A stretch of DNA of 2,584 nt from Dictyostelium discoideum (Eukaryota), in NCBI GenBank assembly GCA_000004695.1, contig CH709154.1, positions 1 to 2,584 on the forward strand, given 5' to 3'. The first letter of the stretch is position 1. Every line of letters starts with the position of its first letter. Shown here piece after piece: positions 978 to 2,584 of this stretch. Under the pieces are notes generated by a model. The model was not told where the DNA came from. It worked only from the letters and a program-made list of their open reading frames with translations, and did not search any database. A program made the position numbers and the translations under genes.

Positions 978-1838
978 CACTTGAAAAGGTGTAAACATAG
1001 AAGTAGAAGATATTGTATTATTGATTGAAAATTGAACCACTTTTAAGTACAATGTCCAGGAACTATTATGAATATTATTAATATGTCATATCAAGCTCTG
1101 GATTTGCAGAGGTTTGGCTTGTAATAAAGTTTTACGTAAAGCGTTTGCTAAGACTCTAACTTATATCTCTGCTTGACCGTCGCCTGATGATGATAGGGTA
1201 AGCATGTGTGATGTTTGACATTATTATTAATTAAGAACTTGGACCATGAGTTACTTGAGAATAACGGATCATTATCTGAAATAATTACGGATGGAAATCT
1301 AAATGTAAACATAACTTGATCTTGTAACAATGGAAAAATATCTTTTGAATTAGTAGATGATGGAATTGGTATGAGTACGACATATTTGGATAATCGGTCA
1401 ACTACAATTAATATTCTATTAAAGTTCAATTTGATTAATTGTACATTTGTTCAAACTTGAAAGGAAATCCATGCTAATTTCACTAAAACATCTTGATGGT
1501 GAAAGAGGTGATAGTAATCCAATTTGATGTTTCCTTGAATCGGAGGCACAAATACATATTTTATTATTACTACAATAATCTTTGATATCATCAATCACTC
1601 CTTTTCAAAAGAATTTTCTTTTAATTTAATCAATGGTTTTGAAACTACTTCAATGACCTGCTAGTGCTAAATCATGATGTATGGAAATTACTTGATTTAT
1701 TACAAAAGTCTCTAATGGTATTATTACAATAATATTTTCATTTTCTTTTAAGCATTGATCTAATGGATAAGTGTTTAATTGTTGATATTGGTTAGTAACT
1801 TTTTGAAGTTTGATAAATTTCCGCAAGAAAAAATTCAA
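978..1838 (-). pseudogene. Ty3/gypsy-type (Metaviridae-like) LTR-retrotransposon integrase remnant, 5'-truncated pol fragment. The N-terminal HHCC zinc-finger region, DDE catalytic core (rve) and C-terminal region are all recognisable; it is disrupted by 4 in-frame stops and 2 frameshifts
   Basis: Minus-strand conceptual translation, stitched by hand (fs marks a frameshift, / a block boundary): LNFFLRKFIKLQKVTNQYQQLNTYPLDQCLKENENIIVIIPLETFVINQVISIHHDLALAGH*SSFKTID*IKRKFF*KGVIDDIKDYCSNNKICICASDSRKHQIGLLSPLSPSRCFSEISMDFLSSLNKCTINQIE[fs]LNFNRILIVVDRLSKYVVLIPIPSSTNSKDIFPLLQDQVMFTFRFPSVIISDNDPLFSSNSWSKFLINNNVKHHTCLPYHHQATVKQRYKLES*QTLYVKLYYKPNLCKSRA*[fs]NNIHNSSWTLYLKVVQFSINNTISSTSMFTPFQV. This matches the conserved integrase series in order: HHD..AGH-x-G..KT, F(Y/F)W.GM..D(I/V)..Y, C..C, GLL.PLP.P..P...ISMDF, ILVVVDRFSK, (H)G.P..I(I/V)SD(R/N)D..F.S, YHPQ(T)..Q.ER.N.TL...LR.Y, NW...LP..EF.YN.....STG.SPFE. 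The C-terminal part parallels Ty3 IN (NIQNW..YLPQIEFVYNST....SPFEI versus NIHNSSWTLYLKVVQFSINNT....TPFQV). Stops sit at 1650-1652 (TGA), 1626-1628 (TAA), 1605-1607 (TGA, exactly at the conserved Trp of F-Y-W-P-G-M), 1148-1150 (TAG) and about 1090 (TGA). Frameshifts are near 1430-1440 and about 1085. ORFs 1650..1838 and 1148..1429 from the supplied track are two pieces of this. Confidence 0.8.
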
Positions 1839-1844
1839 AAAATG

Positions 1845-1862
1845 AAAAAAAAAAAAAAAAAA
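1845..1862. repeat. Homopolymer A(18), immediately 5' (minus-strand sense) of the integrase remnant; followed by T(8) at 1866-1873 and T(7) at 1884-1890
   Basis: Counted directly. Confidence 0.95.
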
Positions 1863-2188
1863 TTGTTTTTTTTGTTAAAAATGTTTTTTTCATATTAATT
1901 TAATATGAAGTTTTTAACTTGGAAAAATTAAATTTATTGAATATCAAAAAGAGCACCAAAATCAACAAGTTTTGTTTCATTTGATAAATCACTTTTGATT
2001 GTTTGGTATTTATTGACTAAATAGCCAATGACACACCACACATCGTGATGTCTTTCCAAAACTTTATCCATATCTATTGTATAGCTTTTAAATTTATATC
2101 TAAGTGGTAGACTTGCTATTTAAAATTGTTTAATTCTTGTAAATACGTTTTCTATTATTATTCTAATAGATTTTTGATTGTTATCTTT

Positions 2189-2584
2189 TTATTTTTGGTA
2201 ATCAGTTCTTTGACCTGATGGGATCGTAAATATATTTTTGAAATGTTTTGTTAAACCCCTGAATCTTTTGTCACCAAACGGAATCAACATTTTCATCTAG
2301 TGATTTAATAAATTCTAAATCTCTTTGAAATAAATTAATATCGTTTTTACAACCACCACTTGGGTACCCTATGTGTAATATTTTCCCACTATCGGGACAA
2401 CAATAAACTAGTAGAGTTAAAGTTGATTTACATTTTTTACCACTGTATAACATATTTCTTAATTTTTCATTGGTGGGAATAGTTATTTGTTGTTCCGATC
2501 CATCGACCACCATTGTTACTGTATATTGTTTAACACCATCATAATAGTCACAACTATTTGATTTATCTTTTGTATCATTAAATA
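2189..2584 (-). pseudogene. Harbinger/PIF-type DDE transposase remnant (DDE_Tnp_4 / HARBI1-like nuclease domain). It is internally deleted and frameshifted and continues beyond the 3' end of the window
   Basis: Minus-strand translation from 2582 downward: FNDTKDKSNSCDYYDGVKQYTVTMVVDGSEQQITIPTNEKLRNMLYSGKKCKSTLTLLVYCCPDSGKILHIGYPSGGCKNDINLFQRDLEFIKSLDENVDSVW*, then in the +1 frame KRFRGLTKHFKNIFTIPSGQRTDYQK*. Three collinear blocks match the DDE_Tnp_4 consensus. First, aIDGThIpI.aP versus VVDGSEQQITIP, carrying the first catalytic D. Second, Y.nRKgfhSinvqvVcDhkGrFlnVvarwPGSvHDsrvF versus YSGKKCKSTLTLLVYCCPDSGKILHIGYPSGGCKNDINLF, carrying the second D, with identical spacing apart from one residue. 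Third, fN.rhs.aR..vEnafGrLKgRFRiL versus FQRDLEFIKSLDENVDSVW[*]KRFRGL, carrying the catalytic E. Removing a single nucleotide at the TGA (2271-2273) gives ENVDSVWDKRFRGL, which lines up residue-for-residue with ENAFGRLKGRFRIL. The roughly 40-aa segment that normally lies between the HD and fN.rhs blocks (containing LLGDsGYP) is absent, so I infer an internal deletion. Confidence 0.55.

Follow-up and report, generated by a model that had tools for sequence, protein, structure and literature searches.

Positions 1814 to 2584 of the analysed DNA, a stretch of 2,584 nucleotides from Dictyostelium discoideum (contig CH709154.1; hereafter the window, with a GC content of 26% over all 2584 bases), very probably represent the 3′ two-thirds of a dead copy of a DDE_Tnp_4, that is PIF-Harbinger-IS5 (PHIS), cut-and-paste transposon. 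Taken by itself, this copy is ordinary non-functional debris, one more dead transposon within a cluster of repeats; its corrected annotation now covers an entire catalytic domain, a frameshift of 2 bp, a pair of nonsense codons, the element end and the insertion site in a Skipper-like integrase. The original prediction had recognised the transposase relic and set its lower limit at position 2189, whereas the coding relic reaches 1934 and the element 1814; neither the element end nor the two in-frame TAA stops were part of its account. The features are collected in Table 1.

Table 1. Coordinates of the transposon copy, its lesions and surroundings in the window, and of full-length copies in Dictyostelium cf. 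discoideum.
Feature	Position	Strand	Basis or remark
3′ portion (about 770 bp) of DDE_Tnp_4 transposon copy	1814..2584	-	98.6% identity to L001; TIR pair of L001
3′ TIR core, TAAATTTCCGCAA	1814..1826		Perfect inverted pair in L001; same motif in L004-L006
Putative 3-bp target-site duplication	1811..1813		TGA on plus strand, TCA on gene strand
First reading frame of relic	2274..2582	-	DDE_Tnp_4 profile 1-69
First catalytic Asp, VVDGSEQ	D 2502-2504	-	Invariant column D71 of family alignment
YSGKKCKS block	2447-2424	-	First reading frame
GGCKNDINLF block	2357-2328	-	First reading frame
Frameshift	2278..2279	-	2 bases (TA) lost relative to L001, AX4 DDB_G0267216 and L003
Second reading frame of relic	1937..2284	-	DDE_Tnp_4 profile 79-143; tblastn with P0158 residues 610-704
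Second catalytic Asp, FGDKRFRGL	D 2270-2272	-	Invariant column D149
Premature TAA	2189..2191	-	Gln in relatives (YQKQKDNNQK); stop common to L001
Catalytic Glu block, IRIIIENVF	about 2167-2141, E 2150-2152	-	Invariant column E186
Premature TAA	2120..2122	-	Tyr in relatives (IKQFYMASL / IKRFYITSL); stop common to L001
C-terminal HHDVWCVIGYLVNKY helix	in second reading frame, 1937..2284	-	Relic
Transposase stop codon, probably the natural one	1934..1936	-	C-terminus similar in length to intact relatives
Decayed Ty3/gypsy (Skipper-like) integrase, insertion host	978..1811	-	Integrase_H2C2 47.6 bits, rve 40.6 bits (Pfam)
Full-length element copies, D. cf. discoideum	L004 4925-7796; L005; L006 2925-5819		Among ordinary host genes

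The minus-strand ORF at 2271-2513 was found as predicted, with an extension that stays open to 2582, and, read from 2582 down to 1934, the minus strand encodes a complete and collinear DDE_Tnp_4 catalytic domain. The uncorrected ORF piece of 103 residues matched Pfam DDE_Tnp_4 (PF13359) at profile positions 1-69 with 31.4 bits (E 1.7e-7), above the gathering threshold of 24.8 bits, which bears out the assignment to a PIF/Harbinger-type transposase. The frame-shifted second piece covered profile positions 79-143 with 24.1 bits when taken alone, and the joined two-frame translation extended over positions 1-143 of 158 with 60.8 bits (E 1.6e-16). The TGA at 2271-2273 is present, and reading goes on in the +1 frame with ...FGDKRFRGL, as had been noticed; the continuation reads MKMLIPFGDKRFRGL...IRIIIENVFTRIKQF*IASLPLRYKF...HHDVWCVIGYLVNKY... 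further down. When the intact 718-aa relative P0158 was used as a tblastn query, its residues 506-621 aligned with 2582-2238 and its residues 610-704 with 2272-1988. A sequence search of the PDB with the family profile gave no match at E<=1.

The same segment had been interpreted as a Harbinger relic with about 40 residues cleanly deleted in frame at the junction NDINL|FQRDLE and a one-base frameshift, in which the block LLGDSGYP would be missing and ENVDSVW-DKRFRGL ('ENVDSVWDKRFRGL') would be the catalytic-Glu block. DKRFRGL does locally resemble GRFRIL, and there is a real frameshift at that spot; however, the profile coordinates of the two halves are collinear, with no gap exceeding the approximately 9 positions filled by ...NVDSV..., and VDSVFGDK lies within one frame in the sister copies. 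Since residues 506-704 of P0158 map contiguously and the profile halves are collinear, no residues are missing from the catalytic core. Moreover, the family alignment placed FGDKRF on the invariant second Asp ('GDKGF') and the invariant Glu in 'RIIIEN', so that FGDKRFRGL is itself the LLGDxGY-type block thought to be lost, and the true Glu is found in IIIENVF, about 100 bp further down and below the ORF on which the original prediction had relied. A deletion within the catalytic domain is thus highly improbable, and the Asp, Asp, Glu triad of the window copy has its canonical order and spacing.

To follow the element past the window end, we used as a guide the D. discoideum contig L001 (GCA_054883475.1), which matches the full length of the window with 98.6% identity at positions 5486-8061 in reverse orientation. 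The indels between the two lie mostly in A/T homopolymer runs (1861-1871, 814-815, 869 and 1085), the one of 11 bp at 1861-1871 falling where the inner TIR sequence is of low complexity. In L001 the gene runs on upstream, in agreement with the expectation that the N-terminal part would lie beyond the window end. The best protein homologues of the DDE region were D. discoideum proteins, including AX4 DDB_G0267216 with 95% identity, whose UniProt name is 'DDE Tnp4 domain-containing protein'. These matches identify the window as nuclear DNA from D. discoideum or a species very close to it.

Comparison with these relatives allowed the lesions to be defined. The predicted frameshift is present, although it is not a single-nucleotide change but a 2-bp deletion: in the pairwise alignment GTTTGG of the window stands opposite GTATTTGG of L001, and GAT TCC GTA TTT GGT GAC (D S V F G D) in L001 corresponds to GAT TCC GTT TGG TGA C in the window. 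VDSVFGDK is read in a single frame in L001, in AX4 DDB_G0267216 and in the copy of L003, and its occurrence in the latter two indicates that the deletion is specific to the window copy. Upstream of the window, the sister copy in L001 has an additional TGG-to-TGA stop and is without about 145 residues of intact P0158 (about 192-335), corresponding to a Cys-rich middle domain with conserved counterparts in Cavenderia and Heterostelium. Judged from L001, therefore, the element is an internally deleted derivative with its deletion upstream of the window; the idea of a deletion derivative was correct in this respect, but not for the site proposed. The 2-bp frameshift and the two TAA codons in the window, together with the upstream lesions of L001, imply that the window copy cannot make transposase.

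The stops, TAA and TGA, replace codons that specify Gln, Tyr or Trp in relatives, which superficially recalls a ciliate-type reassignment, and one could ask whether the copy is functional by recoding, either through a variant genetic code or through programmed +1 frameshifting combined with read-through of the stops. The nuclear code of D. discoideum is the standard one. We assign a practically negligible probability to recoding, given that relatives from the same species use ordinary sense codons in a single frame, that TAA would need two meanings, Gln and Tyr, and that the sister copy in L001 is also without a whole domain. A variant code or a RIP-like process as the origin of the stops was ruled out by the sense codons and the single frame of the same-species relatives.

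The complete element in L001 is 1826 bp long (4422-6247), and the window copy continues past the window end. A search for TIRs past 2584 had been suggested, and in the sister contig an inverted pair does bracket the gene, consisting of a perfect 14-nt repeat, ATAAATTTCCGCAA, at 4421-4434 and 6235-6248. For TAAATTTCCGCAA the chance expectation in the window is 0.02 matches. The window at 1813-1890 and L001 at 4421-4497 share a 79-bp match whose G+C-containing end is the TIR, and inward of the TIR core about 50 bp are similar to the other arm (87%), in what is nevertheless a low-complexity stretch. Inverted-repeat scans of the AT-rich loci yielded mostly A/T-run noise, and the termini became convincing only after the comparison of independent copies: TAAwwTTCCGCAAAA marks the two termini of L001, L004 and L006 and, in L005, the left one, and the similarity of L004, L005 and L006 is limited by ...TCA|TAATATTCCGCAAAATAAA on the left and by TTTATTTTGCGGAAAATTA|TCA... 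on the right, where L005 is truncated. We infer the left end of the window copy from the 98.6%-identical L001.

Directly outside both ends, all three complete copies (L001, L004 and L006) have the trinucleotide TCA, and not the TTA/TAA target-site duplication that had been proposed as a check. When the element and one TCA were removed from L001, ...NGNEKEQKYI was joined to KLQKVTNQYQQL..., and the restored pol aligned with that of a neighbouring Skipper-like copy without gaps across the junction (40% identity, E 2e-26), supporting a precise insertion with a 3-bp duplication. From these sequences TCA is a putative 3-bp target-site duplication (TSD); being identical in all three complete copies, it could instead belong to the termini. 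In Cavenderia fasciculata, where the element copies of L007 and L008 (2846-5213) have the termini TGATAACCATCCCG...CGGGATGATTATCA, the outer trinucleotides TGA...TCA are inverted, not direct. The flanks beyond the outer trinucleotides of L008 are inverted as well (AATTTC / GAAATT).

The Skipper-like integrase, in which an H2C2 zinc finger and an rve core are recognisable, lies directly downstream of the DDE element and on the same strand. Its sequence is broken by at least three frameshifts and by TGG-to-TGA stops, the latter at Trp positions of a paralog (AGHW, FYW). In L001 an RT lies upstream of the DDE element. This neighbourhood would fit a reading of the region as the RT or another pol domain of the adjacent retroelement, which the original prediction had named as the outcome that would speak against it. 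The Pfam search, however, returned no reverse-transcriptase (RVT) or RNase H family at E<=1 for the relic translations of 2189-2584. In addition, inverted repeats of its own delimit the segment, relatives of it sit alone among host genes with no retroelement, and the pol ORF is restored once the segment is removed; a retroelement origin is for these reasons very unlikely, and we keep to a transposon inserted into pol.

To place this transposon among related proteins, we considered a profile search of 1.84 billion representatives, which gave 5375 relatives at E<=1e-3. The closest were dictyostelid proteins of 650-720 aa, with full-length relatives in D. discoideum, D. cf. discoideum, Cavenderia fasciculata and Heterostelium; these were followed by proteins of the heteroloboseans Willaertia and Pharyngomonas, by a 'transposase family protein' from Fervidobacterium and by numerous unnamed metagenomic proteins 260-310 aa long. 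A word-indexed search with full-length P0158 returned its own cluster alone, as low-complexity words swamped the candidates. The 650-720-aa proteins share the order N-terminal CxxC...HxxxC finger, coiled coil, Cys-rich middle, acidic tract, HTH_Tnp_4 and DDE_Tnp_4. HTH_Tnp_4 scored 38.6 bits in the Cavenderia protein P0163, 29.0 bits in P0011 and 25.4 bits in the reconstructed copy of L002, just under the cut-off of 27; in the element studied here, this region falls outside the window. In L002 of D. discoideum (6596-8732), frameshifts have split one transposase of this family, about 650 aa in length, into halves that are called as two adjacent genes of 346 aa and 243 aa, and the 243-aa 'gene' begins at an internal Met inside the HTH.

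The intact relatives, from D. cf. discoideum and Cavenderia fasciculata, are single-gene elements of 2.3-2.9 kb. In D. cf. discoideum the copies of L004, L005 and L006 occupy unrelated loci and share 97-99% identity along about 2.9 kb, one of the three having an intact ORF of 718 aa, and all are annotated as plain hypothetical proteins; C. fasciculata has two copies (L007 and L008) that are 99.9% identical. The near identity of the copies of L004-L006 suggests recent activity in D. cf. discoideum. The intact element of L004 (about 2.87 kb) contains a single gene, the intron-containing transposase, besides which no ORF reaches 80 aa. The companion Myb/SANT ORF for which a search had been suggested is absent from the intact relatives; P0158, P0163 and P0011 gave no Pfam match to Myb, SANT or MADF either, although a partner may be encoded elsewhere, and THAP and YqaJ likewise gave no match. 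A second DDE_Tnp_4 gene is present on the minus strand of L005 (585-1523), 3.5 kb from the 691-aa copy; it encodes 312 aa with a weak HTH_Tnp_4 match and may belong to a different subfamily.

Since relatives occur in gene-rich regions, are annotated as ordinary hypothetical genes and form a family conserved across Dictyostelia, the relic might also be regarded as the pseudogene of a domesticated, HARBI1-like host gene. Such an origin is very unlikely, considering that several near-identical copies occupy unrelated loci within one genome, that their sharp limits of similarity coincide with inverted repeats and with the repeated trinucleotide, and that many copies are broken.

From the features of the family, a single transposase of about 700 aa, ordered from N to C as zinc finger, Cys-rich domain, HTH and DDE nuclease, would bind the short TIRs (TAAwwTTCCGCAAAA) through its N-terminal modules, excise the element by means of the Asp-Asp-Glu triad in a cut-and-paste manner and re-insert it at TCA, which would become duplicated. 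The window copy entered the pol of an older, Skipper-like Ty3/gypsy element just upstream of the integrase, within a DIRS-1-rich repeat cluster, and afterwards decayed by the 2-bp deletion and the two TAA codons. In the sister copy of L001 the termini seem undamaged, which makes mobilisation in trans conceivable, so that the window copy could in principle be mobile through an autonomous relative.

The dictyostelid elements were compared with the PHIS groups defined by their TSDs, namely PIF/Harbinger with TWA, ISL2EU with AT, Spy with none, Pangu with ANT, NuwaI with CWG and NuwaII with C|TNA|G (Han et al., 2015; PMC4482050); most of these groups have two ORFs, and the text of that study does not include Dictyostelium or Amoebozoa (PMC4482050). 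With PIF/Harbinger they share the DDE_Tnp_4 domain, preceded in the dictyostelid relatives by HTH_Tnp_4, as well as short TIRs, a 3-bp flanking repeat and the cut-and-paste logic. They differ from it in the flank, which is TCA in all three complete copies instead of TWA (TTA/TAA), in the length of intact elements (2.3-2.9 kb, against an average of about 4.1 kb; PMC4482050), in having one intron-containing gene where PIF/Harbinger has a second ORF of the Myb/SANT (or MADF) type, in TIRs that start with TAA and not with A/G, and in a long transposase (650-720 aa) with an N-terminal zinc finger and a Cys-rich domain. The flank TCA is 3 bp long and fits the TNA of NuwaII, but the outer flank bases of the dictyostelid copies (A...G, A...A and A...A) show no conserved C/G, and NuwaII has TIRs starting with GG and two ORFs with Myb/SANT, against TAA-initial TIRs and one ORF. 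ISL2EU, with its AT TSD, THAP domain and YqaJ-exonuclease second ORF, differs from elements that have a TCA flank and neither THAP nor YqaJ.

The bacterial IS5 family (e.g., ISDge6 and the cyanobacterial 'transposase family protein') resembles the dictyostelid elements in the combination of HTH and DDE_Tnp_4 and in the YSGKKK motif, and the DDE domain was 24-29% identical to plasmid IS5-family transposases over 85-96% of its length. The dictyostelid elements, in contrast, are eukaryotic and nuclear, with introns and about 450 extra N-terminal residues, and the NCBIfam model transpos_IS5_4 gave their proteins 15-23 bits against a cut-off of 140 bits. In the TCA flank, the TAA-initial TIRs and the single long ORF, as far as these can be read from the sequences, the dictyostelid elements match no PHIS group cleanly, and their placement in PHIS would follow solely from the Pfam domain, a weak IS5 similarity and the TIR/TSD features. 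Within the same genome, Tdd-4/5, DDT and thug are likewise low-copy TIR elements, often nested in repeat clusters; Tdd-4/5 have gypsy-integrase-like (Ginger2) transposases and 5-bp TSDs (PMC2836005). A literature search returned nothing relevant on Dictyostelium with Harbinger or DDE_Tnp_4, and the family seems undescribed in D. discoideum, though it may prove identical with DDT or thug.

A further proposal, which we make tentatively and hold to be possible, is that these elements form an undescribed compact single-gene PHIS lineage, with zinc-finger and Cys-rich DNA-binding modules fused to HTH-DDE, which would make a Myb partner unnecessary, targeting TCA and with recent activity in both D. 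cf. discoideum and C. fasciculata. D. discoideum would then have a DNA transposon with a recognisable transposase, contrary to a review of 2017 in which its DNA transposons (Tdd, DDT and thug) have transposases resembling no known ones (PMC5633606); the distribution of an IS5/Harbinger-type family across Dictyostelia already contrasts with that description. The novelty is modest and concerns the family, with its apparently intact near-identical copies in two species, its atypical one-gene architecture and its TCA flank. The family could aid the repeat annotation of new Dictyostelium assemblies, where copies appear as ordinary hypothetical genes, and it would give surveys of PHIS elements an amoebozoan branch.

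As for its surroundings, the element lies in a cluster of nested repeats like those described from the centromeric regions of D. discoideum (PMC5633606). On the plus strand of the window, positions 144-596 contain an intact ORF of 150 aa with no Pfam match, which belongs to a highly repeated Dictyostelium family (108 clusters) with some members fused to Tyr-recombinase or RT domains; it is probably a fragment of a DIRS-1 ORF. In L001 the whole nested cluster is enclosed by 303-bp inverted repeats (217-519 and 8109-8407), 90% identical to each other and reminiscent of the inverted LTRs of DIRS-1.
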